Shown here: one piece after another, positions 85 to 32,000 of the stretch
How positions within the stretch are numbered: the first letter of the stretch is position 1
Layout: each line of letters starts with the position of its first letter
From: Desulfocapsa sulfexigens DSM 10523
Lineage (GTDB): Bacteria > Desulfobacterota > Desulfobulbia > Desulfobulbales > Desulfocapsaceae
NCBI RefSeq assembly: GCF_000341395.1
Contig: NC_020304.1
Location: 300,001-332,000, forward strand
DNA length: 32,000 nt
Direction: 5' to 3'
Notes under the pieces: model-generated
The model's input: only the letters and a program-made list of their open reading frames with translations
Database searches by the model: none
Told to the model about the DNA's origin: nothing
Made by a program: the position numbers and the translations under genes

Positions 85-471
85 ATGAAAGCACTTGCAA
101 ATATCCTTCCGGCCAATATTTTTCAAAATGAAAAAGGCCAGTCAGCGGTAGAATACCTGGTTATCTGCACCGCACTGGTGTCCATACTCCTGATCTCTTC
201 CTCCCAGGACAGCATGTATAATATTGTGAGCCACACCATGCAGGAAAAATATAAAAGCTATGCGTTCGGAGTATCCATATCCGATCCGCCAAGTAAACAG
301 TTTGACGATGAAGTGAAACAGGACGCCGACAAAGTAAAAGAAGTACTCAACACTCTATCAAAAATAGAGCGACTCATTTCAGACACCATCGTCCCCGATA
401 TCATGCATGGAAAAATGCCCTCCACGGACTCGATTAAGGAATTTGCCGACCTGATAAAGTCTCTTTTTTAA
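85..471 (+). CDS. Flp/TadE-class prepilin-like protein (putative Tad pilin with a long C-terminal extension)
   Basis: ATG at 85. The N-terminus ...FQNEKG|QSAVEYLVICTALVSILLI matches the Flp-type prepilin signature G/xxxxEY followed by a hydrophobic helix. The gene sits directly upstream of cpaB-cpaC-cpaF. At 128 aa it is long for Flp. Confidence 0.6.
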   Translation: MKALANILPANIFQNEKGQSAVEYLVICTALVSILLISSSQDSMYNIVSHTMQEKYKSYAFGVSISDPPSKQFDDEVKQDADKVKEVLNTLSKIERLISDTIVPDIMHGKMPSTDSIKEFADLIKSLF

Positions 472-591: not shown

Positions 592-2517
592 ATGGAAAAC
601 ACGGAACAGAACAAAATAAAAAACAAAACATGGAAGCTCTTTACGGCCGCATTGATTTTTGCATTGCTGGCCGGACTGGGAACAATGCTCTATCTCAACA
701 TCCTTGAGCAAAGGCTGAAAAAACGCCTTACTCCGCCCCAGAAAGAAATGGTTCAGGTTATTGTCGCCAGCAGGAACCTCCCCACTGGGAGTCTTGTCAA
801 TACTTCCACGATGTCAGTCCGCCACGTCCCCAGATCCTACGTTAACAGCGACATTTTCACTCCAGATCAATTCGCCTCAATTCAGGGTGCAATCTTAATA
901 AAACCCCTACAACAGGGAAAAATGCTCGCCCAGGATTATATTGATCTAAAAATCCCAAAGGACTTCTCAGGAACGATCCAGAGTGGGCACCGGGCCATTA
1001 CTATTCAGGTGGATGAAGTAAACTCAATTTCCGGCATGATCAAACCGGGAAACTCCATTGACCTCTTCACCCGGATGTCAGGTAAATCTTTTTCCAACAG
1101 TTCATCGGGTTCACGAGAGGCGATTATTCCGGTTCTTGAAGATGTACTCGTTCTTGCCACCGATAAAATTGCTGCACGGCCCAACGAGGATGAATTCAAA
1201 AATCTTGATTCAGAAGACCGTCGTCGAGCCTACAATACCTTAACCCTGGAAGTAACACCCAAAGAAGCTGCTATTGTTGCAATAGCAGAGTCCCGGGGAG
1301 AGCTTATTTCCATCCTTCGTAACAGCAACGACACCGGAGGAATACTGTTCAGCAAAGTCACCCTTGCAGATCTGCTTGCGCACTCCGATGAAATGCTTGA
1401 ATCCGCAGTCAATAAGCAGCACAATAGAAACCTTGACGGTATCCATCGCAATCAGAACGGACAACTTGTCACCCGGGATGGTGTTGTTATCAAAGACCCC
1501 AATGTCCATCTAAACAAGGATGGACTGCTGGTCACACAAAACGGCACTGTGCTCTCCGGAAGAGATCTAATGGTTGATGCCAATGGCCACATCAGGACCA
1601 AAAATGGAAAGCTGATTGACACTGCAAGCCTGATACCAGGAAAAAATGGGACACTGGTGGATAAAAACGGTAATGTCCTCAGCAGTAACGGATACACAAC
1701 AACCAAAGGTGGCTTCCTTGTAGACAAGAACGGCAATGTCGTTACTCCCGACGGCCATATTATTTCCGGACTCACCGTGGGTAAAGATGGCCAGGTGCGT
1801 ACCAGCAATGGCCGAATAGTAACGGCTGATCACATACGAGTAGGGAAAGATGGTAACGTTCGCCTGACAGACTCTCCTGTGGCTGCCATGACCGTAGACA
1901 AGGATGGAAATGTGCGAACCGCGGATGGCAAACTGGCCAACCCTGAGGACCTTGTCACAGTAGGACCTGACGGAATTGTCCGCGCCAAGGATGGTACAAT
2001 CCTGAAAGGTGTGCATATGGGCAAGGACGGCAAGCTCTACAATGCGGATGGAAAAGAGATGAGTGCTGCCGACATTCTTGCTGCCACCGAGGGATTCAAG
2101 GAAAACAAAAACGGCACCGTAACCGATGCCAACGGCAAAACCTATACAGCAAAAGACCTTGTAAGCGTTGATAAAGATGGAACGGTTCGTAGCAAGGACG
2201 GAACGATCCTCCACGGGGTGCATCTGGATAAAGACGGAAAACTGCGCAATAAAGACGGCTCTCTCCTCACTCCACAGGAAATTTTCACTCAGGATGCAAT
2301 AGCCAGAGCAGCAAAGAGCAACGGTGTAGTTCTCGCAGGAGTTACCGGAAAAATCGATCCTGCATTTGCCGAAAATATCCGTAAGGGGTCTCCAAAAAAC
2401 CTCTCCACATTCAGTCCCTATGAAGTTGAATACATCATTGGTGGCAGGAGTGATGGACCGGCAAAAACGTTTACCATACAAATAGAGAATAAAAATTCTC
2501 AGAGTACAAAAGAGTAG
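592..2517 (+). CDS. cpaB: Flp pilus assembly protein CpaB/RcpC with a ~280-aa C-terminal repeat extension
   Basis: N-terminal TM helix (WKLFTAALIFALLAGLGTMLYL). A SAF-like region (VQVIVASRNLPTGSLV...) and an RcpC-like region (GHRAITIQVDEVNSISGMIKPGNSIDLF...VLEDVLVLATD) follow, which is typical of CpaB. The position upstream of the secretin fits. At 641 aa it is roughly twice the usual CpaB length. Confidence 0.8.
   Translation: MENTEQNKIKNKTWKLFTAALIFALLAGLGTMLYLNILEQRLKKRLTPPQKEMVQVIVASRNLPTGSLVNTSTMSVRHVPRSYVNSDIFTPDQFASIQGAILIKPLQQGKMLAQDYIDLKIPKDFSGTIQSGHRAITIQVDEVNSISGMIKPGNSIDLFTRMSGKSFSNSSSGSREAIIPVLEDVLVLATDKIAARPNEDEFKNLDSEDRRRAYNTLTLEVTPKEAAIVAIAESRGELISILRNSNDTGGILFSKVTLADLLAHSDEMLESAVNKQHNRNLDGIHRNQNGQLVTRDGVVIKDPNVHLNKDGLLVTQNGTVLSGRDLMVDANGHIRTKNGKLIDTASLIPGKNGTLVDKNGNVLSSNGYTTTKGGFLVDKNGNVVTPDGHIISGLTVGKDGQVRTSNGRIVTADHIRVGKDGNVRLTDSPVAAMTVDKDGNVRTADGKLANPEDLVTVGPDGIVRAKDGTILKGVHMGKDGKLYNADGKEMSAADILAATEGFKENKNGTVTDANGKTYTAKDLVSVDKDGTVRSKDGTILHGVHLDKDGKLRNKDGSLLTPQEIFTQDAIARAAKSNGVVLAGVTGKIDPAFAENIRKGSPKNLSTFSPYEVEYIIGGRSDGPAKTFTIQIENKNSQSTKE
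1429..2262 (+). repeat. Degenerate tandem coding repeats ([KD][DN]G-x-[VIL]-x-[TS]-x-[DN]G type) inside cpaB
   Basis: I count 27 D/N-G dipeptides at roughly 9-11-aa spacing between aa 280 and 557, for example VDKDGNVRTADGK, VGKDGQVRTSNGR and VDKNGNVVTPDGH. There are also two clearly related 43-aa blocks: DLVTVGPDGIVRAKDGTILKGVHMGKDGKLYNADGKEMSAADI (nt 1948-2076) and DLVSVDKDGTVRSKDGTILHGVHLDKDGKLRNKDGSLLTPQEI (nt 2155-2283). Confidence 0.75.
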
Positions 2518-2569: not shown

Positions 2570-4078
2570 ATGACATCATCTGACACACACACTCTTCCCC
2601 CTGGAAGACGACCCATTTTCCCAACACTGCTACTCTGCACTCTTTTCCTTTTCATCAGCTTTCCACAGGAAAGCAGTGCTCGCGAAGCCGTAACCATGTT
2701 TCTTGGAGAAGTAAAGGTTCTGGAAATTGATGCGATAGAACGTGTGGCTATAGGAAATCCTGCGGTGGCAAGCAACTCCATTCTCCCTCAGGGCCAGCTG
2801 GTACTCCTTGCTGATTCCGTGGGAGCGACCACCATGCACCTCTGGCTGAAGGATGGTCAGGAAAAAGACTTTGACATCGTGGTCAACGAAAAAAAAGTCT
2901 TTGATGACTACGAGGAACTCGTCTCTCTTCTCAGTACTTTCCAGGGAATCAAGCCCATACGAATCGGCGATCTAACCGTTATCAAGGGAAAGATTCATAA
3001 AAAAGACAAGTCTCAATTCGACCGTATTCTCAAGCGCTATGGTGATGTTCTCGACCTGGTCACCGCCAGAGACATTCAATCAGAAGTTTCCCTGTTACTT
3101 AAAGACATCCCAAACCTGACGGTTCGGGAAATTGGCGGCTACACCGTTCTCTCCGGTGAAATAAGTAAGGAGTTTTCTCCCCTCATTGCCATTATCGAGC
3201 AAAAGTACCAGAACATCATGAATCTGACCAGAGTACATGCCGCTGTAGCAGGGAAAATGATCTACATGAAGGTCAAAATCATGGAACTCAGCAAGAGCGT
3301 TACCCAGAAGCTTGGAATCAACTGGGGAAACCTTATGACCGGGCTCACCGGACCTTCACTTGTTTTTGGAGTGGAGTCATCACGAAACGGCGGAACCCTC
3401 CTCAATGACAATAGTACTTCATCGGTTCTTACCAAGCCTGGCGGCACAGACCTCACAACATCCAGAGGCTACTTTGGTATAGCCACGGGTGTCACCTCTG
3501 TTATCAACCTCTCTCTGCAGAATGGCGACGGTGTTATCCTTGCAGAACCGCAGTTGAGCACCCGATCCGGTGGCAAGGCAACATTTCATGCTGGCGGAGA
3601 ATATCCAATCGCCACAACTTCCAGCATGGGCCAGGTAAACGTCGAATATAAAAAATATGGTATCATGCTGAATATTGAGCCTTTAGTCGACGACCGTGAT
3701 AACATTCTCGCCCATATTGAAACGGAGATCAGCAATATTGACCATGGCCAGAACTTCGGAGACTACGTGGGTATCCTGACCCGTAACACATCAACGGATG
3801 TCAGCCTCAAGGTTGGTGAGACTCTTGTCATGGCGGGACTTGTTCAGAATGTTGCCCATAACGACTTTAATAAAGTGAAATGGCTGGGCGACACCCCCAT
3901 CCTTGGCCCATTGTTTCGTTCCCAGGACTTTCAAAACCAGCTCACAGAACTTGTCATCTTCGTAACACCATATGTTTACGACGCTTCGTCAACAGTAAAC
4001 TCCGGTAAGCTTACCGAGGCGGCACGTATTCAGAAACAGTTTGATGAAATTGTTAAAGGCCATGAACTGGTAGATTAA
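2570..4078 (+). CDS. cpaC: Tad/Flp pilus secretin CpaC/RcpA
   Basis: Signal peptide, then the N-terminal pilus-formation/BON-like region (LGEVKVLEIDAIERVAIGNPAVA). C-terminal secretin core motifs are present: AEPQLSTRSGGKATFHAGGEYPI, YKKYGIMLNIEPLV, GETLVMAGL and LGDTPILGPLFRS. Confidence 0.9.
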   Translation: MTSSDTHTLPPGRRPIFPTLLLCTLFLFISFPQESSAREAVTMFLGEVKVLEIDAIERVAIGNPAVASNSILPQGQLVLLADSVGATTMHLWLKDGQEKDFDIVVNEKKVFDDYEELVSLLSTFQGIKPIRIGDLTVIKGKIHKKDKSQFDRILKRYGDVLDLVTARDIQSEVSLLLKDIPNLTVREIGGYTVLSGEISKEFSPLIAIIEQKYQNIMNLTRVHAAVAGKMIYMKVKIMELSKSVTQKLGINWGNLMTGLTGPSLVFGVESSRNGGTLLNDNSTSSVLTKPGGTDLTTSRGYFGIATGVTSVINLSLQNGDGVILAEPQLSTRSGGKATFHAGGEYPIATTSSMGQVNVEYKKYGIMLNIEPLVDDRDNILAHIETEISNIDHGQNFGDYVGILTRNTSTDVSLKVGETLVMAGLVQNVAHNDFNKVKWLGDTPILGPLFRSQDFQNQLTELVIFVTPYVYDASSTVNSGKLTEAARIQKQFDEIVKGHELVD

Positions 4079-4111: not shown

Positions 4112-5836
4112 ATGTTTGACATCATAATTCATGACGACAAGGGCAGCACTCTTGAGACCCTGCAATGCACGAAAGCAGAGTGCGGCATTGGTCGTTCCGG
4201 AAAAAACCTGGTCCAACTCAGTGGCTGGCGAATTGCCGGGATTCACGCCCAACTGATTGAAAGAGAGGATGGAATCTATGTCAGCGACACTTCATCCGGC
4301 ATCGGAACGCGGGTCAACGGAGAAACGATAACGACATTTGGTCCGCTTCTGGCTAAAGACACTATCACCATCGGTACATTCAGGATATCAGTAAGCTCAG
4401 GAAAACGACCCTCAGCACAACAGACCGAGCCACCAGCTAGTGAGCCTGAAACCACAGCAAACGAAATGATGGAGAAACCGGAGAAAGAACCATCCGAACC
4501 GAAAAACTCGCTCCGCAGAACATTTGGGGTTCGACAGGGGGCCGAAGATGGACTGGCTGCACCGGGCAGAGATGACCGTCGTTTTATATGGCACAAACGC
4601 ATCCATGACAAACTCATGAACGCCATGGACCTGCGCCGTACCGATGTGCAGGCCATGAACGATGACGAACTCAGTGAAACCGTCAGGTCGCTGGTGAATG
4701 ACATAATAGGGAAAATGGCCAGGAGCCTGCCTCCCGAAGTTGACCGTGCAAAACTTGCCAAGGAGGTCATCGATGAAGCCATAGGACTCGGGCCTCTCGA
4801 AGATTTCCTCGCCGAAGATTCGATCACCGAAATCATGGTGAACAGTTACGACTCAATCTACTACGAAACCCATGGTAAACTCCACAAATCAAACATAACA
4901 TTCAGCAGTGATAATGCCGTCCTTGCCGTCATTGAACGTATTGTTTCGCCCCTGGGGAGACGAATTGACGAAAGTTCCCCCATGGTCGACGGCAGGCTGA
5001 AGGATGGCTCCAGAATTAATGCCATCATTCCGCCCCTTGCCATAAAAGGTCCCTGCCTTACCATTCGGAAATTTTCCAGAAAAAAACTGAGCATTGATGA
5101 TTTTGTCCAATTTGGATCGATCTCCAACAAAATGGTAGATTTTCTAGAAAAAGCCGTTCACTATCGAAAGAATATTATTATTTCAGGGGGAACCGGCAGT
5201 GGCAAAACCACATTCCTCAATGTTCTCTCAGATTTTATTCCCCACGATGAACGGATTATCACGGTGGAAGATTCTGCAGAGTTAAAGCTTGGTCAACCAC
5301 ATGTGGTATCTCTTGAAGCCAGACCAGCAAATATGGAAGGCAAAGGGGCAATCATCATCCGGGATCTGGTAAAAAACTGTCTCCGCATGCGCCCCGATCG
5401 TATTATTGTCGGGGAATGCCGAGGGGGAGAAACCCTTGATATGCTTCAGGCCATGAATACAGGGCACGACGGCTCCCTGACAACTGTCCACGCCAACTCT
5501 CCGCGGGATCTTGTCTCCCGCCTTGAAGTGATGGTGATGATGGCCGGAATGGACCTTCCTGAAAAAGCTATCCGGGAGCAGATTGCCTCGGCGGTCCATG
5601 TTGTTGTACAGCAGTCACGATTCTCTGATGGAACACGCAAGATCACCCATATTACGGAGATCACCGGTATGGAAACCGGAGTGGTGCAGATGCAGAACAT
5701 TTTCATTTACAAACAAAACGGACTTGATAAGGACGGTAACGTTATAGGAGAATACAAGGCCACTGGACGCGTTCCGGAATTTTACGAGGTATTGCGGCAG
5801 CAGGGCATAACTGTTGACATGAGTATATTCGAGTAA
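4112..5836 (+). CDS. cpaF: CpaF/TadA secretion ATPase with an N-terminal FHA domain
   Basis: aa 1-95 look like FHA (CGIGRSGKNLVQL...IAGIHAQLIEREDGIYVSDTSSGIGTRVNGETI...ITIGTFRI). An acidic, Pro-rich linker follows. The VirB11/CpaF-type core has Walker A GGTGSGKTT, the Asp box ITVEDSAEL, Walker B RPDRIIVGECRG and the His box GHDGSLTTVHANS. Confidence 0.9.
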   Translation: MFDIIIHDDKGSTLETLQCTKAECGIGRSGKNLVQLSGWRIAGIHAQLIEREDGIYVSDTSSGIGTRVNGETITTFGPLLAKDTITIGTFRISVSSGKRPSAQQTEPPASEPETTANEMMEKPEKEPSEPKNSLRRTFGVRQGAEDGLAAPGRDDRRFIWHKRIHDKLMNAMDLRRTDVQAMNDDELSETVRSLVNDIIGKMARSLPPEVDRAKLAKEVIDEAIGLGPLEDFLAEDSITEIMVNSYDSIYYETHGKLHKSNITFSSDNAVLAVIERIVSPLGRRIDESSPMVDGRLKDGSRINAIIPPLAIKGPCLTIRKFSRKKLSIDDFVQFGSISNKMVDFLEKAVHYRKNIIISGGTGSGKTTFLNVLSDFIPHDERIITVEDSAELKLGQPHVVSLEARPANMEGKGAIIIRDLVKNCLRMRPDRIIVGECRGGETLDMLQAMNTGHDGSLTTVHANSPRDLVSRLEVMVMMAGMDLPEKAIREQIASAVHVVVQQSRFSDGTRKITHITEITGMETGVVQMQNIFIYKQNGLDKDGNVIGEYKATGRVPEFYEVLRQQGITVDMSIFE

Positions 5837-5844
5837 ATACGACT

Positions 5845-6696
5845 ATGATTGCAAACATTATCATCGCCTCTCTTGTGGCCGTCTCTACAGGAATTTTTGC
5901 CTGGCTCTTTTTTCTCAAGATGTATGACAAATTGACCTACTACAAGGATACTGTCGAAGAACTAACAACAAACAAATTCTCCGAACTTTTTCTCTTCATC
6001 GATATCTCTAACTATTTTTATTATTACATTGCGGCGCTCCTCATCTTCCCTATTATTGCTGGAAGCCTCTCGGGAGATATTTCACTCGGCATACTCACAT
6101 TTCTCGTCATACTCTTCTCACCTTACCTGATCCTCAAGGAGATGATCAAAAAGCGGTTGAAGAAGTTTGAACAGCAGTTGCCGGATGCCCTTGTCATGGT
6201 TGCCGGATCCATCAGGTCTGGATCCAGCCTACCCATTGCTCTCGATAGCCTTATTAAGGAAAGTTCACCTCCGCTCTCTCAGGAATTCGGTCTCTATGTC
6301 CGTGAACGAAAACTTGGGCTCGACCGTGACAAAGCATTTGACAATCTGGAGCGCAGGGTACCTCTCGAGGATTTATCCCTTTCTCTGTCAGCCATTCGTA
6401 TATCCAGTGAAATTGGTGGAGATCTTGCCGAAACCCTGGAATCTCTTGCTGAAACTCTTCGAAAAAAACTTGTCATGGAAGGGAAAATAGACAGTCTCAC
6501 CTCACAGGGGAAACTGCAGGGAATTGTGATGTCCACCCTCCCTCTTTTTCTCATCGTCGCCCTGATGAAACTGGAACCGGCTGCCATGGGCCAGATGTTC
6601 ACCACCAAAATAGGATGGATGGTTCTGGCGACGATTGTATGCATGCAGGTACTCGGATTTATAGCCATCAGAAAAATCACAGCAATTGACGTGTAA
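5845..6696 (+). CDS. tadB: Tad pilus inner-membrane platform protein TadB (T2SS-F-like)
   Basis: Polytopic membrane protein with a T2SSF-like cytoplasmic segment (QLPDALVMVAGSIRSGSSLPIALDSL...). It lies immediately after cpaF. Confidence 0.85.
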   Translation: MIANIIIASLVAVSTGIFAWLFFLKMYDKLTYYKDTVEELTTNKFSELFLFIDISNYFYYYIAALLIFPIIAGSLSGDISLGILTFLVILFSPYLILKEMIKKRLKKFEQQLPDALVMVAGSIRSGSSLPIALDSLIKESSPPLSQEFGLYVRERKLGLDRDKAFDNLERRVPLEDLSLSLSAIRISSEIGGDLAETLESLAETLRKKLVMEGKIDSLTSQGKLQGIVMSTLPLFLIVALMKLEPAAMGQMFTTKIGWMVLATIVCMQVLGFIAIRKITAIDV

Positions 6697-7580
6697 TGAC
6701 TGAAAATTTATATAACATCATACTGGGCTTGAGCGTGTCGGCATCAATCCTCTTCACCCTTATGGGGGTTCTGCAGCTAAGCAAACTGGTTCCCGAAGAG
6801 GATCGTGAATTTATGGATCCTCTCCCCCCGCTCCTGGATTTCATCTGGCCTCTTGCTCGTATTATTGCCTATTACGGCTGTTCCAGGATTCCATTTTCCT
6901 ACCTCAAAAGTGTCGAAGGACGCCTGAAACGCAATGGACTCGGCCATATGATGATCGCTGAAGAGTTTATTGCTCTTCGCATTATTGCGGCATCTGTGGC
7001 ACTCCTTTCGGGCTACATCCTGATAACACTCCTCGCGGAATGGAATCCTATCCTCTACATTGTTCTTCCCGCACTTGGATTCTTTTATCCGGATATATGG
7101 CTCAGAGACATTCGTAAGAAGCAGGTGGATGCTGTCCTGCGCACCCTGCCTGCCTACCTGGACTTTATCACCATGGCAGTGGAAGCCGGGCTGAATTTCT
7201 CAGGAGCCATCGCCCAGGCCAGAACCAAGGGTCCGGCAGGACCGCTGGTGATAGAATTTGGCATCGTACTCCGCGATATGCGTTCCGGAATCCCGAGGAC
7301 CAGAGCCTTGAAGCGAATGGCCAAACGACTGGACATCCATGAAATAAGCAGTTTTGTAAACGCCGTGGTACAGGCAGAAAAAATGGGATCAAGCATGGCT
7401 GGGGTCCTGCGGATCCAGGCAGAGCAACGCCGCAGTGAACGCTTTCAACGGGCAGAAAAGAAAGCGATGGAAGCACCGGTCAAGCTTATCGGCCCACTGG
7501 TTATTTTTATCTTCCCAACGACCTTTATTGTACTGGCATTTCCCATTGCCATTAAGTTTATTCAGGGAGGCTATTTTTGA
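6696..7580 (+). CDS. tadC: Tad pilus inner-membrane platform protein TadC (T2SS-F-like)
   Basis: The start overlaps the tadB stop (TAATG). T2SSF-like segment: LPAYLDFITMAVEAGLNFSGAI...SSFVNAVVQAEKMGSSMAGVLRIQAEQ. Confidence 0.85.
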   Translation: MTENLYNIILGLSVSASILFTLMGVLQLSKLVPEEDREFMDPLPPLLDFIWPLARIIAYYGCSRIPFSYLKSVEGRLKRNGLGHMMIAEEFIALRIIAASVALLSGYILITLLAEWNPILYIVLPALGFFYPDIWLRDIRKKQVDAVLRTLPAYLDFITMAVEAGLNFSGAIAQARTKGPAGPLVIEFGIVLRDMRSGIPRTRALKRMAKRLDIHEISSFVNAVVQAEKMGSSMAGVLRIQAEQRRSERFQRAEKKAMEAPVKLIGPLVIFIFPTTFIVLAFPIAIKFIQGGYF

Positions 7581-7933
7581 TTACCGGAAAGATCAGCATC
7601 AACTCTTCACCTGAAACATCTCTCTACCATATCAGAAAGACCGAAACATTCTTTGAACGTGGCCGGGGATTGCTGGGATGCACAGGACTTGAAGAAGGAC
7701 ACGGTATGCTCATCAGCCCATGTAACTCCATCCACACCTTTTTCATGAAGTTCCCAATAGATGTTATTTTTTTAAGCAACGACAATCGTATTCTGGCCAT
7801 CCATCTCAATATGAAGCCACAACGTTTTTCACGATCAGCAAACGCCTCATCTGTCCTTGAACTCATGGCTGGTCAAACTGACATATCAGGTCTTCAGACG
7901 GGAGATACCCTCCTCTGGGAGCCACTGCAATGA
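7577..7933 (+). CDS. DUF192 (COG1430) family protein embedded in the tad operon
   Basis: TTG start overlaps the tadC stop (TTTTGA). The motif block RGRGLLGCTGLEEGHGMLISPCNSIHTFFMKFPIDVIFL is characteristic of DUF192. Confidence 0.7.
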   Translation: MITGKISINSSPETSLYHIRKTETFFERGRGLLGCTGLEEGHGMLISPCNSIHTFFMKFPIDVIFLSNDNRILAIHLNMKPQRFSRSANASSVLELMAGQTDISGLQTGDTLLWEPLQ

Positions 7934-8382
7934 TAACACTGAAGAGCATTTCCCGTCTCAGTTTCCTGCTGTTTTTTATCCTTACGAGTTGTGCCACAAA
8001 AGACCTGACCCGTATCCGTGAAGAGGCCTATATGGCCTATGATAATAAGGAATACGACAGCGCCGCAGATAAATTTGAAATCCTGGTAAAAAATGCCCCG
8101 GAAGACGTGGAATTCTGGTTTCGTCTCGGAAATGCCTATGCCAGATCGCAGAATCCGCAACTGGCTATATCTGCCTATCAGAACGCGCTACTGCGCGACC
8201 CCACCCATGTAAAGGCATGGTATAATATGGGATTTGTTCAGACCCAGACGGCACTGAAAACATTCGTCGATATGCAAACCTACACGGACACGGGTAGCCC
8301 CCTCGGAAAACAGGGGAAAAACATGCGGGAAGGCCTGTTTCTCCTACTCGAACATGGCAATGAACCTCCAGAAGACAAATAG
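7930..8382 (+). CDS. TPR-repeat lipoprotein (TadD-like candidate)
   Basis: ATGA overlap with the preceding gene. Signal peptide with lipobox ILTS|C. TPR-like helices follow (AADKFEILVKNAPEDVEFWFRLGNAYARSQNPQLAISAYQNALLRDPTHVKAWYNMG). The operon position is compatible with a TadD-type pilotin. Confidence 0.6.
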   Translation: MITLKSISRLSFLLFFILTSCATKDLTRIREEAYMAYDNKEYDSAADKFEILVKNAPEDVEFWFRLGNAYARSQNPQLAISAYQNALLRDPTHVKAWYNMGFVQTQTALKTFVDMQTYTDTGSPLGKQGKNMREGLFLLLEHGNEPPEDK

Positions 8383-9127
8383 ACACAGGCCCGATTTCAG
8401 TTTTCAGGCAAGACTCCTCTCAAATTCGGGGCAGAGTATGGCCGAATTTCTGATTATCCTGCCCGTCATGCTGCTGCTTATTTTCGGGGCTATCCAATTT
8501 GCCCTTATATACCACGCCAAGATAACTCTCAATTATGCGGCCTTTGAGGCTGTACGTGCTGGAACTCTGGGACAGGGGAAATTCGATGAAGTCAAGGAAG
8601 GATTTGCCAGGGGACTGGCTCCGCTCTACAGCTACTTTGAATCAGACCCGGACCTGAGAAAAAAACGGGATCCCAATGCCACTGCCGGGGATCAGATTGA
8701 AGCCTTCCAGATGGCGCGCGACAAGATTTACAAAGAGTTTGACACCTCAAGCAAACTGATCCGTATTGAACGACTCAATCCCTCTGACACAACATTCCTC
8801 AGTTTTGCCTCCGACGCAACACTGCCCAATGACAATCTCAGATACCGTTCCTCAAAAACGAAGGGGAAGGAACAGGTATCATTACAGGATGCGAACCTCC
8901 TCCATCTCCGTGTGACTTACTGGTACCCACTCTACGTCCCCTTTGTGAATAAATTGATTTTCAACACCTTTATCTGCCACAAAAAGTCCCCCGGTTTTTC
9001 AGGGAAATGGGCTGACGATCCCGTCTGTCTGGACAAAGATCAGGATCCGGTAATCCCCCTGACGGCCACAGCAGTCATGCGGATGCAGACACCACTGCTT
9101 CAGAGCACCGGATATTATCCAAATTAA
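8354..9127 (+). CDS. TadE-like pseudopilin
   Basis: The leader ends ...LLSNSG|QSMAEFLIILPVMLLLIFGAIQFALIYH, matching the TadE/TadF prepilin-like motif G/xxxxEF plus a hydrophobic helix. The 5' end overlaps the TPR gene by 29 nt (alternative ATG at 8360). Confidence 0.7.
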   Translation: MAMNLQKTNRHRPDFSFQARLLSNSGQSMAEFLIILPVMLLLIFGAIQFALIYHAKITLNYAAFEAVRAGTLGQGKFDEVKEGFARGLAPLYSYFESDPDLRKKRDPNATAGDQIEAFQMARDKIYKEFDTSSKLIRIERLNPSDTTFLSFASDATLPNDNLRYRSSKTKGKEQVSLQDANLLHLRVTYWYPLYVPFVNKLIFNTFICHKKSPGFSGKWADDPVCLDKDQDPVIPLTATAVMRMQTPLLQSTGYYPN

Positions 9128-9145
9128 AACAGCCTCATTAAACAG

Positions 9146-9179
9146 TCACAACCACTTGTACTTATACTCATGGTTGTGA
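9146..9179 (+). terminator. Hairpin after the tad operon (candidate terminator or operator)
   Basis: Perfect 9-bp inverted repeat tcacaacca (9146-9154) / tggttgtga (9171-9179) with a 16-nt loop. A short T tract follows and a longer T run lies at about 9203-9209. The loop is long for a canonical intrinsic terminator. Confidence 0.35.
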
Positions 9180-9263
9180 TAGTATTTTCACACAGCACTC
9201 TCTTTTTTTGTTCTGGAGAAATACCGCAACACTCGCGCTCAAACTGACAAGTGGAGTCTGACC

Positions 9264-9602
9264 ATGTCAAAGGAACAGAGGAAACATCAAAGAAATCCGG
9301 CCAATGGAAACCTACGAATCAAAACTTCCCTCACGGGTATTGCCTATACCGTATCATTACGGGATGTCAGCAAAGGCGGAGCATTTGTACACACCCTGCA
9401 TCTTCCAAGGCTGAACGAAACAATCAGCTTCGAAATTCTTGATGAGTACGGCCTGCAGCTGATCAGGGGACATGGGAAGGTGGTTCGAATTGTGGAAAGG
9501 GCTCTTGATACAGCTACCGGTTTTGCAGTACGTTTTAATGAATTACTGGATCCGGCAATGCTGGACTATCTGTGCGCTGTTCGCCTTCAGGAAACAGCCT
9601 AG
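9264..9602 (+). CDS. PilZ-domain protein (putative c-di-GMP receptor)
   Basis: RxxxR motif (QRKHQR) near the N-terminus and D-x-S-x-x-G (DVSKGGAF) about 30 aa later. Single-domain size of 112 aa. Confidence 0.8.
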   Translation: MSKEQRKHQRNPANGNLRIKTSLTGIAYTVSLRDVSKGGAFVHTLHLPRLNETISFEILDEYGLQLIRGHGKVVRIVERALDTATGFAVRFNELLDPAMLDYLCAVRLQETA

Positions 9603-9658: not shown

Positions 9659-11581
9659 CTACCAACCACCTCCGCCACCACCACCTGAGCTGCCACCACC
9701 ACTACTGCCACCGGATGAGGATCCACCACCACTTGCAGTAAGTGAGCCCACCGCCATACTCCATGAGCCACTCGCTCCGCCACCGCCAAAGGCCCCACCA
9801 CCACCGGTAAAACCCGATGTCGACGAACCACTGCCAATTCCCGTTGAACTGAGATGACCTACGCTGCCACCAAACTTTCGAAACCATGAATCAACGTCCA
9901 TCCCCAGGCCAAAGGCGAGGAGATAGGGGAACCAGTCGTCTTTGATCCTGGGATTCTTCTGAGCCAACTCCTGTTTGAAAAAGTTTCTGGCCGCGGCAAA
10001 ATTTCTTCGTAAAACAAGCCCTTCTTTACTTTCCCTGGATTTGGAGAGGTTAATAATATTGTTGCTGAAAGACAATGCCAGGCAGAACAGTCCGAAGAGG
10101 AGCAGACTGGACGCCGGAAAGAATAAGAGCACAGCAAAATCTATCAGAATAAACCAGAGAGAAAAGATTATCGCAGCCAATCGTACCTTCAGCGAGAGAA
10201 CAGAATGACGATAGCTGTAGGCGCAGACACAACCAAAAATCCATGAAAAAAGTAGTCCTGCCATACCTCCAACCTGTAACGGGACAAATTCGGCCTGATG
10301 CAGAAAAGCATTCCCAAGTAAAAGAAAGCAACCAGCGACACCTAACAGCACCGTAGGTATCCAGATCATTCCAAGAACAGAATTCCCTTCATCGACAAGC
10401 TTTTTCATCTGCCTTTGCAGGGGGTCCTGTATTTTAAGCACTGGATCAAATGTCTTTCGTTTTTTGCGATAATATTCACGAATGGTTTTGGTGTCTGTTA
10501 TGTCCGAATTTTCGTCCACAAACAGCCCTTTAACCAGTTTGTATTCATAGCCGGAGAACGACTCCCTGGGTTGCAGGATTTTCAGATACAAAACAGGAGG
10601 AATGCCGGGGATACTAATATTGAAGAAAGGCAGGAGATAGGGTTCCATCCAACTCTCCATTTTCCCCTCCTGTACCATTCTGGAAAGAACCGCTGCCACT
10701 TCCGCAGTAGAGGTTGTTTTATCCCAGGTAGCCCCAACTACCTCCGCCTTATGGACGAAGAGCTCTTTTTCAAGCCACTGCTCATCCACAAGGGATGTTG
10801 ACGGGAGCGGTGCAAAACGATTTAGGGATCTTTCCCATTGAAAAAAACCACGTATCTTTGTTGCAATCCAGGCAACCAAAAAGAGTAACAGCAAGAGACG
10901 GATCCAGGTAGCAGCTGGAGGCGGTGGCAGGGCCGGAGTTGCCTGAGGAAGTGGGGCCTGTTTTGTGTAGGTCATAGGCTTTTTTTCTCCTGAAAAGCTT
11001 AGCTTCTGACGCAGCACAACTCCCTCTCCGGGAGCTATGTTATTACGAACCAGAGAAATCGGTAATTGCTGCCATACAGGGTCAAAGGTCAGTTCCAAAC
11101 GAAAATTCTTAACAATTCCTGACCGATCCGGAAAACAGAAATCATGATCCAGCAGATAGTTGCCCTGTTCTGGAAGCAATAGATGACTCAGACTGTAACG
11201 AAGAATATAGGTGATGGAGGTATTGTTAAAAACAGGATCGGAAGGAAGGCGCGAACGCCAGCGGATTGCCGTCTGCCCGTTATGATCCCAGTGATCTACC
11301 AGTTGGAGGTTACCACGCTGTAACGGGATATTTCGACCATTGGCATCAAGCCTGCTGATCGACTCGAATTTCATCTTCTGACCAGGAAAGACACGAAATA
11401 TCCGTTCGCCACCATTCCAGTCACCCGAGAACACAATAGTTTGCTGCTCTTGAATATGAAGACGTCCATCACCATCCAGGGTTGCCCTGACTTCAATATC
11501 CTGCCAGAAGAGAGAGCGGGCCTCTGCAGCGAAAGGACACAGAAGGACGCAGAAAAGGAGGAAACGAAACACAATTAGCAT
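9659..11581 (-). CDS. DUF2207-family membrane protein with a Gly/Ser-rich C-terminal tail
   Basis: Signal/anchor MLIVFRFLLFCVLLCPFAAEA. The N-terminal exo-domain (LFWQDIEVRATLDGDGRLHIQEQQTIVFSGDWNGGERIF) is typical of DUF2207. Several TM helices follow. The C-terminus ...GGGGAFGGGGASGSW...GGGSSGGGGGGGW is the family-typical poly-Gly tail. Confidence 0.8.
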   Translation of the reverse strand: MLIVFRFLLFCVLLCPFAAEARSLFWQDIEVRATLDGDGRLHIQEQQTIVFSGDWNGGERIFRVFPGQKMKFESISRLDANGRNIPLQRGNLQLVDHWDHNGQTAIRWRSRLPSDPVFNNTSITYILRYSLSHLLLPEQGNYLLDHDFCFPDRSGIVKNFRLELTFDPVWQQLPISLVRNNIAPGEGVVLRQKLSFSGEKKPMTYTKQAPLPQATPALPPPPAATWIRLLLLLFLVAWIATKIRGFFQWERSLNRFAPLPSTSLVDEQWLEKELFVHKAEVVGATWDKTTSTAEVAAVLSRMVQEGKMESWMEPYLLPFFNISIPGIPPVLYLKILQPRESFSGYEYKLVKGLFVDENSDITDTKTIREYYRKKRKTFDPVLKIQDPLQRQMKKLVDEGNSVLGMIWIPTVLLGVAGCFLLLGNAFLHQAEFVPLQVGGMAGLLFSWIFGCVCAYSYRHSVLSLKVRLAAIIFSLWFILIDFAVLLFFPASSLLLFGLFCLALSFSNNIINLSKSRESKEGLVLRRNFAAARNFFKQELAQKNPRIKDDWFPYLLAFGLGMDVDSWFRKFGGSVGHLSSTGIGSGSSTSGFTGGGGAFGGGGASGSWSMAVGSLTASGGGSSSGGSSGGGSSGGGGGGGW

Positions 11582-11673: not shown

Positions 11674-13110
11674 TTACGGAACCTCTCTTACAAGGGATAT
11701 TTTCTCCAACGTTCTCCTGAGCAGAGTAGCCATATCCACACGAATCTCAGCATCCTGTTCCGAGTGTTCGTTTTTTTGCACTATTTCAAAAAAACGATTG
11801 CAGACCTTACGCTCCTCTCTGTTCCAATCGGCACTGTAGCCCACTTTTGCAGGAAGCATAGCATCATCGGAGGACGAGGTTTGGTAATCTCTCCGTCCAT
11901 GAGCCCAGTTTATGATATGGCTGTAGAAGAGAAACTGTCGATCAAGCAGCACAAAAAGAAGCTGGATATTTTTTACCGGCCCAACCGTCAGCTGCTGCGC
12001 ATCAAGACGCATCCCCAGAAGGCGTGTGCCTGACAACAATTCTCGTCCCTTCAGTGCTGTCCCCGCAGCCCCCACAATCCCGCCAATGGTTGAAAAAATC
12101 CCAAAGGAAAGTCCGGCAGCAGCCACATCAATACCGGCACCAACGGCAGCACCACCCAATGCTCCTGCCATGATCAGCTGTGAAGAACTCAACCCAAGAA
12201 ACTCCCAGGTTTTTTCTGCGAACAGATCCTCCTGAAGAATGGAGTGAGGCGGCAGATCAAGGTTGAAGATATTGTGTTTATAAAGATCCCGCATCTGTTG
12301 CTGACACTTCTTCTCCTGCTGGCGAAGGAAATGTTCATACTGTCCGTGGATTTTTTTCTTCAAAGCCCCCTCGTCATCTCCTGGCTGTAACGATATAGAG
12401 CGGTGGTAAGTAAGCCCCTCTTCCACAAGACCAAGCAGCAGCTCCACCACCTGGGTGTTACGCTGCTGCCAGTCATTCTTAAAAGCAATTATCACCTGAT
12501 CAACTATGGGCTGCAGATTCTGATCGATTCCCTTGAGGCTCTCCAGCAGTGCAATACGTTCCTGGTAGGTGGCCCGGCAGGAGTTAAAAAGCCGGATGGA
12601 GTTAAAATGTTTTCTGAATTCCAACTGCCACTTCCCCAGCCATCCCGTCTCTTCAACCTTGCAATTGATAATCGCCATGCGCGGACAGCCGGTGAGACGC
12701 AGAATCTCCATCTCCGCTTTGTCCATATTACGAAGCGGCCTTGAGCCATCGACAACAAAGATAATCCCAGCCCCCCGCAACAGTGGCTGCAGAAGTTCAC
12801 AATCATCCTTAAAATCGGGATCACCAATGTGAGCTGCAATAAAGTCTGCTATCAGGGTATCATCGTTTCCCTGGTATTCCTGCATCCATTGCAGTGTCCT
12901 TCGCGGATTTTGAAAACCCGGGGTATCGGTGAATCTGATTATTTCCCTGCCATCAATAGTGACCGGAAAAATCTGACATTGTCTGGTTTCCCCCGGCATT
13001 GGGCTGATACGTACGGAATCATCTTCAGCAAGGGTAGACAATACCGAGGACTTGCCTTCGTTCGGATGGCCGATCACCGCAAATTCAGGAATTTTCCTCT
13101 CTTCTATCAT
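11674..13110 (-). CDS. Membrane-associated GTPase (MMR_HSR1-like G domain plus DUF3482-like region)
   Basis: G1 is GHPNEGKSS and G3 is DTPG. The G4 position reads INCKVEE, which is non-canonical. A Gly/Ala-zipper hydrophobic hairpin LIMAGALGGAAVGAGIDVAAAGLSFGIFSTIGGIVGAAGTAL lies at nt 12049-12174. The start overlaps the stop of the upstream gene. Confidence 0.8.
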   Translation of the reverse strand: MIEERKIPEFAVIGHPNEGKSSVLSTLAEDDSVRISPMPGETRQCQIFPVTIDGREIIRFTDTPGFQNPRRTLQWMQEYQGNDDTLIADFIAAHIGDPDFKDDCELLQPLLRGAGIIFVVDGSRPLRNMDKAEMEILRLTGCPRMAIINCKVEETGWLGKWQLEFRKHFNSIRLFNSCRATYQERIALLESLKGIDQNLQPIVDQVIIAFKNDWQQRNTQVVELLLGLVEEGLTYHRSISLQPGDDEGALKKKIHGQYEHFLRQQEKKCQQQMRDLYKHNIFNLDLPPHSILQEDLFAEKTWEFLGLSSSQLIMAGALGGAAVGAGIDVAAAGLSFGIFSTIGGIVGAAGTALKGRELLSGTRLLGMRLDAQQLTVGPVKNIQLLFVLLDRQFLFYSHIINWAHGRRDYQTSSSDDAMLPAKVGYSADWNREERKVCNRFFEIVQKNEHSEQDAEIRVDMATLLRRTLEKISLVREVP

Positions 13111-14681
13111 CTCTTCACCAGGGGGCTTACCTGAAGACAGGGGTCCAGCAGTATGGCAGTTTTCTCACGCCAGACCTGAAGGTCCATCTTCGTTACCGGG
13201 GTAAAAATGGTACTCGGATCCGGTTTTCCAATGAGTCCCACAATGATGACCGTTTCTTTGCCACAGTGGAGACGAAGCTCCCGGAGAAAATGCAGCATTT
13301 CCTGAATGGGCGGCTGCCAGGCCTCCTGCAGAATCAGCAGGGGGAAACAACCTCCATCCGATTCAGGTCGCAATTGTGAAAAGATCGGGCTGCTGTCACC
13401 ATATTCATCATCAATCCGCAGCATTCCAGCAACGCCATATCCGAACACCTCCTGGCAGAGCTGTTTCATTCCGGCCGTATCACAGTCATCAAAGAGTTCA
13501 TCCGGGACAAGAGCCAGGAGTTCTCCATTTACAGTCCGGGGTTCTTCCTCCTCTCTCTGCATGGTTTTCGGAAGAGGGTCACTGGAGACACCCTGCACCT
13601 GCGGACGAGTTTCAAGCCGAGGGGAGAGAAGGCGATGGAGGAGCTGATTATGATCCGGTCGCTGTAATGAAACTCTTTTCAGAGCACGCTTACGCCCAAA
13701 GGTACCAAGCATAAAAAGAGCTATCCGGGGCAGTAGGCAGTAACAGCAGATCGCCAGACAGAGAAAGGGCCACCAGGAAACAAGATCAGTGCTTATCAAA
13801 TGATAGAAGCCATCCTTTAACACCATCCTGCTTCCTTCAATCTGGGCAGCACCGGGATAGCTTGCAGACCCCAGCAGCCAGGACCATGGCAGAGCAAGCC
13901 AGTGGACAAGACGTGCCACAAACTGAGACGAAACCTGAATGGTGGACTGCCAGCCAAAGGCCATATCCGAGCTTGCCACCTTGACCAGAAGCACCCCAAG
14001 CACTCCAAAATTAAAGGCAATCCCAAAGAGTTGAAAAAGAAGAAACAGAGGCCAGGAAAACAGCGCTCCGTAGCCCTTGCCACGGGTACGGACGGCAGCA
14101 AGAGCTCCTGCAAATTGAGATCTGCGGTGCCCCGCCATATTCTCAAAGCCGTAACGTCGTATTTTGAAAAGAAAGCTGTTAAGCCCCCTGCTCACCAGGG
14201 AAAGCAATAATGAAGAACGGAGATCAAAGCCGCGTACTCTGCGATAGCCCCACACAAAGAGTAACAGAAGCAGAAAACAGACCTGGAATCCGACAAAGAC
14301 AAGAAAAAAGAGGGACACATTTACCGGTTGCTCCCCGGAATAGCTGAGAAACGACCAGGCAAGCCCGGCACCCGAAGCCAAAGCCAGAAAGGAAAACAGC
14401 GACCAGAACAGACCATACAGCTCATACCACATCCTTCCCGGCAGCAGAGCCTGCCCACCCTGTTCCTGATTTTCCAGACGTCTCCGTTCCTGCAGCCATC
14501 GATAAATCAGCCATTCACGCTCAGGCTCTGCATCCGTCACATCTCCGCCAATTACATTGAGGTAGAGATTCCGATCCCTGTCACGCAGCACAGCTGCGCC
14601 CTCTTCTTCTTCCAGTTGTTTGTCCTGAATGAAAAAATATTCGAGATCCAGAAAATCAGGGATGCGCCACGAAGAATTCAT
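13107..14681 (-). CDS. Polytopic membrane protein, DUF2868-like
   Basis: Acidic soluble N-terminus, at least 4 hydrophobic spans (for example LYGLFWSLFSFLALASGAGLAWSFL and VSLFFLVFVGFQVCFLLLLLFVWGY) and a soluble C-terminal domain. I prefer the ATG at 14681. The track ORF extends to a TTG at 14741, which would overlap the divergent EamA start. The stop overlaps the GTPase ATG (ATGA at 13107-13110). Confidence 0.65.
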   Translation of the reverse strand: MNSSWRIPDFLDLEYFFIQDKQLEEEEGAAVLRDRDRNLYLNVIGGDVTDAEPEREWLIYRWLQERRRLENQEQGGQALLPGRMWYELYGLFWSLFSFLALASGAGLAWSFLSYSGEQPVNVSLFFLVFVGFQVCFLLLLLFVWGYRRVRGFDLRSSLLLSLVSRGLNSFLFKIRRYGFENMAGHRRSQFAGALAAVRTRGKGYGALFSWPLFLLFQLFGIAFNFGVLGVLLVKVASSDMAFGWQSTIQVSSQFVARLVHWLALPWSWLLGSASYPGAAQIEGSRMVLKDGFYHLISTDLVSWWPFLCLAICCYCLLPRIALFMLGTFGRKRALKRVSLQRPDHNQLLHRLLSPRLETRPQVQGVSSDPLPKTMQREEEEPRTVNGELLALVPDELFDDCDTAGMKQLCQEVFGYGVAGMLRIDDEYGDSSPIFSQLRPESDGGCFPLLILQEAWQPPIQEMLHFLRELRLHCGKETVIIVGLIGKPDPSTIFTPVTKMDLQVWREKTAILLDPCLQVSPLVKR

Positions 14682-14733
14682 AACATCAGTTAATAGTTGC
14701 AGGTAAAAAAGAGTTTCTTTCTTTCTGTAAAAG

Positions 14734-15729
14734 ATGCACAATACCAGTTTTCAAGTTTTTTTTACAGAAAGTTTACCATGGATTTTTATTGTGCAGACAA
14801 CAAGCAACTGGCGGGCCAACTTCCTCCTCCTCCTTACCGCAATGATATGGGGTTCTTCCTTCGTTGCCCAGCGTCAGGGAATGGAGCATGTCTCACCCTT
14901 TACCTTTAACGGGCTACGCTTTCTCGTTGGCGCTGTATCTCTTCTCCCCATCCTGTTCCATAGCAGGTCTAAAGAGTACAACAGCACAGGGACAATGCCA
15001 CTACTGTCATGGCCGATCATCGCAGGAGGCTTCTCCCTCGGTCTGGTTCTTTTTGCCGGTGCATCACTGCAACAGATAGGAATAGTCGAAACAACTGCAG
15101 GTAAAGCAGGGTTTATCACCGGACTTTATGTCATTATTGTTCCTCTGCTGGGACTCTTCGGAAAACAGAACACAAGATTCGGCACCTGGCTTGGTGCGTT
15201 GCTCGCTGTCATCGGGATGTATTTTTTAAGTGTCACCGATGATCTCAGCCTTTCGAGAGGTGACCTGCTGGTTCTTTGCAGCGCACTGTTCTGGGCAATG
15301 CACGTGCAATTAATTTCCAGACTGTGCCAGAAGCACGATGCCCTGCAGCTCTCCTTTTATCAATTTCTCTTCTGTGCCCTTTTCAGCCTGCTGACAGCCC
15401 TTCAATGGGAGACAATATCCCTGGCTGGAATTCGGGGTGCACTGTTTCCCATCTTCTACACCGGAATTTTCTCAGTGGGAATTGCCTACACGCTGCAGGT
15501 TGTTGCCCAGAAAAAGGCGCACCCCGCTCACGCTGCCATCATCCTCAGCCTTGAATCTGTTTTTGCGGTCCTGGCCGGCTACTTTATTCTGGGAGAAATA
15601 CTTACCCCCCGAGGACTCTTTGGCTGTAGCCTGATGCTTGCAGGAATGCTCCTGTCACAACTGCTCACCAGCAGAAATAGTGATCAAATACTAAGAGGTT
15701 CACGGTGGTACAGAAAAATATTGAACTGA
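14734..15729 (+). CDS. EamA/DMT-superfamily transporter
   Basis: About 10 predicted TM helices in two EamA-like halves. The N-terminal motif LLLLLTAMIWGSSFVAQRQGME is typical of the family. Confidence 0.85.
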   Translation: MHNTSFQVFFTESLPWIFIVQTTSNWRANFLLLLTAMIWGSSFVAQRQGMEHVSPFTFNGLRFLVGAVSLLPILFHSRSKEYNSTGTMPLLSWPIIAGGFSLGLVLFAGASLQQIGIVETTAGKAGFITGLYVIIVPLLGLFGKQNTRFGTWLGALLAVIGMYFLSVTDDLSLSRGDLLVLCSALFWAMHVQLISRLCQKHDALQLSFYQFLFCALFSLLTALQWETISLAGIRGALFPIFYTGIFSVGIAYTLQVVAQKKAHPAHAAIILSLESVFAVLAGYFILGEILTPRGLFGCSLMLAGMLLSQLLTSRNSDQILRGSRWYRKILN

Positions 15730-29955: not shown

Positions 29956-30417
29956 ATGCGAATTATTACTTTTATCTTTTTTGTTTTGTTTGCTTTTCCT
30001 GCCTTCTCAGCTGAAAATAAAACAGAACTTTCGTCTGGACAAACGCTTTATGTAGCTATTTATTCAAATGTTTTTATTGGACCGAAAGAGCACCCCTTCA
30101 ATCTAGCTGCAATGCTCAGCATAAGAAATACAGATTTATACAATCAACTCACTATCACCTCAGCAGAATACTTTGACAACAATGGCAAAATATTAAAGGA
30201 ATACGCTAAAGAACCAATACTTCTTGCTCCTCTGGCGTCACATCACTTTTCAATAAAAGAAAGAGACGAATCTGGCGGCTTTGGCGCAAACTTCATCGTC
30301 AAATGGAAAGCAACGAAAAAAATAAATCCACCAATAATCGAAAGCGTAATGATCGGAACAGGATCAGGAATCTCTTTTGTGAGTCAAAGTAAGGTAATTG
30401 ATGAAAACACTAAATAA
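29956..30417 (+). CDS. DUF3124-family secreted protein
   Basis: Signal peptide MRIITFIFFVLFAFPAFSA. Family-like blocks GQTLYVAIYSNVF, LSIRNTD, GGFGANFIVKW and ESVMIG. Confidence 0.65.
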   Translation: MRIITFIFFVLFAFPAFSAENKTELSSGQTLYVAIYSNVFIGPKEHPFNLAAMLSIRNTDLYNQLTITSAEYFDNNGKILKEYAKEPILLAPLASHHFSIKERDESGGFGANFIVKWKATKKINPPIIESVMIGTGSGISFVSQSKVIDENTK

Positions 30418-30527
30418 AAAGCCACTTGACCTATATATGCACCAGACGCAGAGATACCATTTTTTGCTGACAAACACTGGGTACGCTAGCGATGCATAAC
30501 CTTATATTTTGTTAGAAAAACAATGTA

Positions 30528-30851
30528 ATGAAAAAAATTGATTATCGAAATCAGGCGTTAAAAATCCTACCGTGGATCTGTGGTAACTGTGGCCGTGATT
30601 TTTCAGGAAAAAAACTCAGAGAGTTGACGGTCCATCACAAAGATCATAATCATAAAAATAATCCCCCTGACGGAAGCAACTGGGAACTATTGTGTCTCTA
30701 TTGTCATGACAACGAGCACTCCCGTATCTTGGATTCCGAATGGCTGCCAAGCCACAATTCTGACAACGACCGAAGCCCAGCTGCATACAATACTCCTTTT
30801 AAAAACCTCAATAAACTTGTATCTGACAAGAAAAACAACGAACCAGAATAG
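30528..30851 (+). CDS. yajD: YajD-like HNH nuclease-family protein
   Basis: CGNCG...LTVHHKDHNHKNNPPDGSNWELLCLYCHDNEH, a close match to the YajD HNH/zinc-finger core. Confidence 0.8.
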   Translation: MKKIDYRNQALKILPWICGNCGRDFSGKKLRELTVHHKDHNHKNNPPDGSNWELLCLYCHDNEHSRILDSEWLPSHNSDNDRSPAAYNTPFKNLNKLVSDKKNNEPE

Positions 30852-31085
30852 CAAAGGCAGGAAACGCAACACGGCCCCGAAACTGCATTGGGTCGGTTAT
30901 CTCGACTTTACAGATACTTGGTACTACAAGGAGCCAATTTCACCACTTAGTTATGTGTGCTTGACTTATTTCCCACTATTGATAGAGTAATTCATTCTTG
31001 GAAGTCTTCAGCGGTAGAGAGTTGGACATAAAAACGCAACAAAGGCCTCGCTCCTTAACCAAAAAGCACTGTAAAGAAAAACCAA

Positions 31086-31450
31086 ATGAGAACAATTAAT
31101 ATAGCAACTTTTTTCATGGCTATTCTATTGCTGAGTGTCAACGCATCTGCCCAACCTTCAGGAGAGGAGAGGCAGGGGAATTCGTAATTCATAATCAATC
31201 AGAAAAAATCGTAGTCGGATTTTATACCAATGATGGGAATGGATGGAGCTCGAACTGGCTTTCAGAAGAGCTTGCCCCGGACCAAGCCGCTACGGCTGAA
31301 TTTGCAGATGACATGGGAGCTTGTGACCAGATACTGCAAGTGGGATGGCTTGGTGAGGATGGCAGTGAAATTCTTGACGATCCAATCAGTATAGATATTT
31401 GCAAAACGTCTAATGTTTATGTTTCAGACAATGAAATATACTATGACTGA
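31086..31450 (+). pseudogene. Small secreted protein interrupted by a frameshift (or an assembly error)
   Basis: ATG at 31086 encodes a good signal peptide, MRTINIATFFMAILLLSVNASA|QPSGEERQGNS, and then stops at TAA 31185-87. A second frame is open from about 31101 to TGA 31448-50. It encodes a coherent 90-aa domain (EFVIHNQSEKIVVGFYTNDGNGWSSNWLSEE...CDQILQVGWLGEDGSEILDDPISIDICK...). That frame has no ATG/GTG/TTG until late. Confidence 0.5.
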
Positions 31451-31970: not shown

Positions 31971-32000
31971 AAACTGTTTTCATAACCAGAACTTCATATT

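Follow-up and report, generated by a model that had tools for sequence, protein, structure and literature searches.

It is not settled how the inner- and outer-membrane halves of Tad pilus machines are joined, and structures that bear on this date only from 2025-26. Two solutions have been described so far, direct docking of RcpC on the secretin RcpA and a separate adaptor, CpaI; according to the authors of the Caulobacter work, Tad systems join their outer- and inner-membrane complexes in diverse ways (PMC13170226, PMC12637624). A tad locus of Desulfocapsa sulfexigens DSM 10523 raises the question of whether the link can also be built into CpaB. The locus lies in a stretch of 32,000 nucleotides (nt) (contig NC_020304.1, positions 300,001 to 332,000 of the forward strand), called the window here; coordinates follow its own numbering, and the tad genes are on the plus strand. 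Its cpaB/rcpC gene (592..2517) encodes a protein of 641 amino acids (aa), a genuine CpaB family member with a new, apparently undescribed linker variant made of β-hairpin repeats. If the array acts as proposed below, it would add a third way of making the link, by means of a structured strut of modular repeats within CpaB, and would be a natural experiment on trans-envelope spacing.

Domain layout of the long-form CpaB

The product of 592..2517 is unambiguously a CpaB/RcpC protein of the Tad alignment-complex family. It scores 128.2 bits against the NCBIfam model TIGR03177 (curated equivalog cutoff 71), matching over aa 20-275, and Foldseek relates its model to Pseudomonas aeruginosa RcpC (PDB 9gzr) with E=3e-11. 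A PDB sequence search also found RcpC; the remaining matches were spurious (nanobodies). The N-terminal inner-membrane anchor helix, at about aa 14-36 (631..699), comprises the hydrophobic stretch KLFTAALIFALLAGLGTMLYLNIL within a helix predicted by AlphaFold2 (AF2) at aa 7-46, and agrees with the topology of RcpC (PMC12307814). It is followed by D1, a SAF domain at aa 55-113 (754..930; Pfam PF08666, E=3.9e-5, above the gathering score), for which Foldseek returns SAF/antifreeze type III and FlgA folds, and by D2, the RcpC domain and ring-forming body, at aa 125-243 (964..1320; PF16976, E=3e-25). The proximal part of linker L3 contains a predicted helix at aa 258-278 (1363..1425), and the TIGR03177 match extends into it. 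The hairpin-repeat array then occupies about aa 279-575. The initial annotation held that such an array roughly doubles the size of CpaB, and this succession of TIGR03177, SAF and RcpC matches followed by the array bears it out. A distal linker (aa 576-608; 2317..2415) comes next, with an AF2 strand at 580-588 and a helix at 592-598; it is partly of low confidence, the predicted local distance difference test (pLDDT) score falling below 50 at aa 600-609.

The protein ends in a β-hairpin (aa 609-632, YEVEYIIGG...KTFTIQ; 2416..2487), the presumed element for docking on the secretin or an adaptor. A short conserved-looking segment after the array had been remarked on earlier, and it proves to be conserved indeed: AF2 models the C-terminus YEVEYIIGGRSDGPAKTFTIQ as a hairpin with strands 611-616 and 625-630, and the motif [DE][YFL]IxGGxSxDG...V is present in all long CpaBs examined, down to 27% identity. 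A related motif, E[LIY]I[IV]GG, follows D2 in 20 short canonical CpaBs, a set selected by the motif and hence partly circular. Alignment of long-form with short-form tails by hhalign gave 92% probability, a weak result in that the segments were picked by the motif itself. The TIGR03177 alignment did not reach the tail when a chimera of aa 1-262 and 597-641, or the tail alone, was searched against NCBIfam.

Published systems give these elements a context. RcpC of P. aeruginosa, whose gene likewise stands in a tad operon immediately before that of the secretin, is built in the order transmembrane (TM) helix, D1, D2, linker L3 and C-terminal β-hairpin; the hairpin completes a β-sheet of the secretin N-domain, L3 is required for the dodecameric ring, and the protein needs both hairpin and L3 to bind RcpA and to function (Evans et al. 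2025, PMC12307814). In Caulobacter, the CpaB-CpaI-CpaC assembly ties the inner-membrane ring to the secretin in that a C-terminal β-hairpin is donated to a T2SS-T3SS_pil_N β-sandwich, and the CpaB hairpin packs on the adaptor CpaI, which bears that domain (PMC13170226, PMC12637624). The T2SS-T3SS_pil_N domain of CpaI is also present at the N-terminus of CpaC. In D. sulfexigens, the secretin gene cpaC/rcpA (2570..4078; 502 aa; PF13629, 8e-14; PF00263, 1e-35) follows cpaB, and the PF13629 match places the β-sandwich at aa 38-106 (2681-2887); by analogy, this domain is likely to be the docking site of the CpaB hairpin.

On balance, the array is an insertion in L3, between the D2 ring body and the presumed docking hairpin, and not the C-terminal extension as which it was first described. 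The contrast in length is large: L3 of RcpC (303 aa) has about 35 residues, whereas the long-form CpaB has about 330 residues between D2 and the hairpin, about 300 of them being structured hairpin repeats of variable module number. Caulobacter obtains reach from the separate adaptor CpaI; in the long form, the extra length is built in.

Repeat units, modules and distribution

The array has a 7-residue period with [DN]G turns. Both repeat units quoted initially, VDKDGNVRTADGK and SPYEVEYIIGGRSDGPAKTFTIQ, are present in it, and the earlier count of 27 D/N-G dipeptides is exact for aa 280-564 (nt 1429-2283). Composition-preserving shuffles (20,000) yield 7.3±2.3 such dipeptides, with a maximum of 17. 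Co-occurrence of glycines at lag 7 amounts to 20 against 4.8±1.9, a value reached by 0/20,000 shuffles, and harmonics appear at lags 14, 21 and 28. This periodicity is real and far beyond chance. The array can be parsed into 13 units, each a hairpin pair of 19-28 aa that follows the pattern h.V.KDG.V.T.DG.hh; its end is better placed at about aa 575, which would extend it to nt 2316.

Conservation within the array is concentrated on particular residue types. Across 57 homologues, glycines 290, 297, 311, 318, 332, 360, 374, 381, 388, 400 and 407 are invariant; they fall in the proximal half (aa 279-452; 1426..1947), which is delimited by unit layout, these glycines and pLDDT values of 80-90. 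Forty-seven array columns are at least 90% conserved, among them 29 Gly and 13 hydrophobic positions (12 aliphatic or aromatic and one Ala), and the Gly and hydrophobic positions are invariant in homologues down to 31% identity. The conserved columns are fold determinants and not a ligand surface, a pattern of maintenance of the fold. Aromatic residues make up about 2% of the array (Y 1%, F 1%, W 0).

The distal half is organized in larger units. Two 43-aa blocks within it (1948-2076 and 2155-2283) had been read as a recent duplication. Their paralogy stands, at 26/43 identical aa and 77/129 identical nt; their recent origin does not. The duplication is ancient, because identity is only ~60% at both levels and because Tandem Repeats Finder (TRF) and DNA repeat searches found no tandem repeat and no recent repeat at the DNA level. 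Among Desulfobulbaceae relatives the proximal half is constant in copy number; the distal half consists of super-repeats of 69-85 aa, present in one to three copies in aligned relatives. Module 1 (aa 453-521, 69 aa; 1948..2154) was delimited by alignment with P0030, and module 2 with its terminal helix (aa 522-575; 2155..2316) by alignments with relatives.

Gain and loss of these super-repeat modules accounts for the lengths of long-form CpaBs, which cluster at about 573, 643, 727 and 814 aa. Module 1 is missing from the 573-aa relatives, and the ~814-aa form would imply a fourth module. The closest relative, GCA_975001335.1, is 97.4% identical in nucleotides over 4.1 kb and differs from D. 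sulfexigens by a single in-frame indel of 255 nt, an extra 85 aa in the relative that correspond to a third module. The indel site lies near nt 2230-2232. The direct repeat GAYAARGACGGAAAACTRCG flanks this 255-nt block, the hallmark of repeats that have recombined or slipped. In a tree of the N-terminal domains, module number differs between sister lineages at least three times. The array is thus, as one early suggestion had it, a length-variable element, with module number differing among close relatives.

The architecture is real, clade-restricted and already in databases. A word-indexed search returned 116 clusters at 90% identity, of which about 111 have the CpaB-plus-repeat architecture (472-835 aa); where the source gives a name, these are all labelled CpaB. 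HMMER, run exhaustively over 1.84 billion representatives with aa 270-641 as query, gave only 121 matches, about 46 of them CpaBs or fragments. Among GTDB species genomes, long-form CpaBs were found in Desulfobulbaceae (Desulfocapsa, Desulforhopalus, Desulfofustis and Desulfobulbus), in Desulfuromonas, and in many metagenome-assembled genomes (MAGs) of sulfur-associated Gammaproteobacteria (Thiohalobacter, Sulfuriflexus, Thiotrichales, Chromatiales and Cellvibrionaceae); nearly all carriers are MAGs, and the best match is Desulfocapsa sp. MC-05 (83%). The N-terminal-domain tree, a neighbour-joining tree without bootstrap whose sampling is biased by the query, groups all CpaBs with repeats (390-768 aa) as a single clade, separate from the short forms. 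The architecture is therefore not the singular case it first seemed; it marks a clade of more than 110 clusters labelled simply CpaB. A literature search found no paper on a repeat-bearing CpaB, and the variant is apparently undescribed in the literature though present in public data.

What the array might do

The reading favoured here, in which we place about half of our confidence, is that the array would be a modular, semi-rigid periplasmic strut that lengthens the ring-to-secretin tether by module steps. Of the roles first suggested, those of a spacer across the periplasm or a length-variable element have the best support, module number varying as it does between close relatives. L3 is enlarged by about 300 residues of β-hairpin repeats, which would fold as a semi-rigid, elongated solenoid or ribbon of hairpins. 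The ring would carry about 12-14 of these arms, directed toward the secretin CpaC; jointly they would serve as an integral strut that spans the distance from the inner-membrane platform to the outer-membrane pore and perhaps determines it. The C-terminal hairpin would dock by strand addition on the N-terminal β-sandwich of CpaC, as in the studied systems. The distal 69-85-aa modules would be gained and lost through recombination between repeats, so that the reach would alter in discrete steps.

Some rough dimensions can be attached to this proposal. Reckoned from hairpin solenoids with units of ~20 aa, the array might measure about 10-14 nm in total, or 3-4 nm per module. Published periplasm widths at the machine site are 24-33 nm. 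CpaC measures 435-532 aa in long-form loci and 414-565 aa in short-form loci; compensatory shortening of CpaC was sought in the long-form loci and none was found, so the array represents net added reach.

Structure prediction yields a confident hairpin-repeat model. With a 57-sequence alignment, AlphaFold gives the array a pLDDT of 80-90 in the full-length protein. Foldseek searches with the full-length model were dominated by the N-terminal domains, and the array was therefore remodelled alone (aa 276-580), giving serial short hairpins with occasional helices (pLDDT 82.3; predicted TM-score (pTM) 0.58). The matches of this model were GtfD (glucansucrase domain V; 2e-7), alternansucrase (5e-6), TcsL CROPs (1.5e-5), Rhs (2e-4) and LytC/LytA (about 1e-3). 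Choline-binding, CROP and glucan-binding repeats (CW_binding_1-type) are built from ~20-aa hairpin-plus-loop units that form elongated solenoids, and they are the class that Foldseek matches best to the array, whose units measure 19-28 aa; weak HMMER cross-matches also link it with choline-binding-type repeats. It differs from them in its 7-residue sub-period, its [DN]G turns and its lack of the conserved aromatics, and in sitting in a diderm periplasm, inside a component of a machine.

Several of these observations weigh against a pure strut. The nearest structural relatives of the array are carbohydrate- or cell-wall-binding modules, and the Foldseek E-values of 2e-7 to 1e-3 come with TM-scores of about 0.1, so low that only the local repeat class is matched. 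Moreover, the proximal 170 array residues are strongly conserved in sequence and copy number, which a pure spacer would not obviously need; this half could instead meet a specific partner. An unlikely alternative is that the array is a ligand-binding solenoid and no spacer, holding the Tad machine to peptidoglycan or another periplasmic glycan. Its top structural matches all point that way, as does the high conservation of the proximal half; the choline-binding-repeat proteins P0153 and P0167 and a TPR-PD40-repeat-OmpA protein, P0150, are among the distant HMMER matches, and the Caulobacter bridging protein CpaI is published as lying near the peptidoglycan layer. Yet a Pfam scan of CpaB at E<=0.01 gave no Choline_bind or CW_binding match (none to PF01473, PF19085 or PF19127) and no peptidoglycan-binding domain, the ligand-pocket aromatics of choline- and glucan-binding repeats are essentially absent, the conserved positions are Gly and buried hydrophobics, and the low TM-scores limit what the matches can say. 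The earlier suggestion of a peptidoglycan- or ion-binding module accordingly finds no positive support.

A closed conduit is a further, doubtful alternative, in which 12-14 arrays side by side would form a β-walled tube or cage around the thicker fibre of a long Flp-type pilin. RcpC has been described as a periplasmic conduit (PMC12307814) and CpaB as a cage-like structure, and hairpin edges are generally able to form inter-chain sheets. The pilin part of the argument comes from the gene preceding cpaB (85..471), which encodes a Flp-type prepilin-like protein of 128 aa with the processing motif G/QSAVEY. This is about twice the usual length of a Flp protein. A Flp-motif gene of 115-165 aa nearly always precedes cpaB in long-form loci (directly upstream in L002, L003, L007-L010, L013, L016 and L021-L045); the gene at this place has 51-76 aa in most short-form loci, with a few at 101-110. 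The long Flp-type protein may build a thicker fibre, or its co-occurrence with long CpaBs may simply come from shared clade ancestry: the link between pilin and CpaB length was drawn from a sample biased to one clade, and the 128-aa protein is only a putative major pilin, its Flp_Fap match (E=0.004) lying below the gathering score.

A last and very improbable account is that the region is misassembled, that two genes have been fused, or that low-complexity sequence has expanded without a function. Repeats are prone to misassembly, and the D. sulfexigens allele is 85 aa shorter than that of its 97% relative. This reading is already effectively refuted. The gene is neither two genes nor an artefact, because a single continuous open reading frame runs through it, both in D. 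sulfexigens and in over 100 independent assemblies (NCBI, JGI, ENA, Logan), which disposes of the caution first attached to the region. Across distant species, long-form CpaBs most often have two modules (about 643 aa), the Gly and hydrophobic positions are invariant and AF2 confidence is high, and repeat copies only about 60% identical in DNA are too diverged to collapse in assembly.

Other proteins also bear on the strut reading. P0138 (520 aa) has a signal peptide, a T2SS-T3SS_pil_N domain, repeats and a C-terminal FIPGGTSKDG...V hairpin as in CpaB; it is a CpaI-like adaptor in which the repeats would serve as a strut. In P0132 (1627 aa), repeats extend over about 1400 aa between a TM helix at the N-terminus and a TrbI/VirB10 domain at the C-terminus, in the position of the periplasm-spanning linker of VirB10. 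A linker role is supported by these two proteins because they carry the repeats at an equivalent position. VirB10/TrbI proteins, with an inner-membrane anchor, a long linker and a C-terminal domain that binds the outer-membrane complex, are comparable with the long-form CpaB, although canonical VirB10 is part of another secretion system and has a proline-rich extended region as its linker in place of hairpin repeats. CpaB-type hairpin repeats are also found in giant proteins (2000-5000 aa).

Two Pfam families share the motif type dG.v.d.dG.v with the array. DUF3659 (PF12396) reaches 30.6 bits over the whole protein (gathering 24.8) and PF22692, the FlgE/F/G D1 hairpin, 35 bits (gathering 27); both scores are sums over many weak repeats, with 0 stretches individually significant. 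DUF3659 is an uncharacterised, largely fungal family, and a literature search on it found only unrelated fungal work. Assignment of the protein to the flagellar FlgE/F/G rod/hook proteins was rejected on its TIGR03506 score (16 bits, cutoff 70) and its Tad operon context. RTX calcium-binding repeats (the GGxGxDxUx nonapeptide) were likewise rejected, given a period of 7, the motif xVxKDGxVxTxDG and no RTX match in Pfam.

If the strut reading holds, a role would be assigned to this uncharacterised DUF3659-like repeat type, which recurs as a linker in one CpaI-like and one VirB10-like protein and in giant surface proteins. Alleles with 1, 2, 3 and 4 modules would offer a natural length series, accessible to cryo-electron tomography (cryo-ET), for how Tad machines span the envelope. 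A bolder extension, speculative and rather improbable, is a distinct Tad subtype defined by a long Flp-type pilin, a repeat CpaB and an FHA-CpaF, in which 12-14 arrays would act as a modular ruler or closed β-walled conduit that sets envelope spacing; recombination would tune copy number strain by strain to periplasm width, e.g. in sulfur-cycling bacteria, or to fibre thickness.

The tad operon and the rest of the window

The operon is ordered Flp-like, CpaB, CpaC, CpaF, TadB, TadC and then TadE-like. Downstream of cpaC, Pfam matches over 4112..9602 identify an FHA-CpaF ATPase, TadB, TadC, a DUF192 protein, a TPR protein, a TadE-like pseudopilin and a PilZ protein. The cpaF/TadA ATPase gene (4112-5836) encodes an N-terminal FHA domain (aa 26-88), a linker of ~100 aa and the T2SSE core; the FHA domain suggests phospho-threonine-dependent control of the pilus motor. 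The DUF192 protein (7577-7933) is followed by the small TPR protein (7930-8382), possibly a TadD-like pilotin, and the stand-alone PilZ protein (9264-9602), within or at the end of the operon, hints at control by cyclic di-GMP (c-di-GMP). Downstream of cpaB the window contains neither CpaE/TadZ nor a prepilin peptidase, and a CpaI-like gene was not seen anywhere in it.

The remainder of the window is ordinary chromosomal sequence, with genes for a chemoreceptor, sensor kinases, PBP1 and a Na/Ca exchanger. A conserved pair on the minus strand (11674-14741) encodes a DUF2868 protein (544 aa) and a DUF3482-domain GTPase (478 aa), and it is adjoined by the gene of a DUF2207_C membrane protein (640 aa; 9659-11581). 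At the window edge, a small HNH endonuclease gene (30528-30851, plus strand) lies in a low-GC stretch (39-40% against about 48% elsewhere; profile 30001-32000), which may be a mobile or foreign segment.

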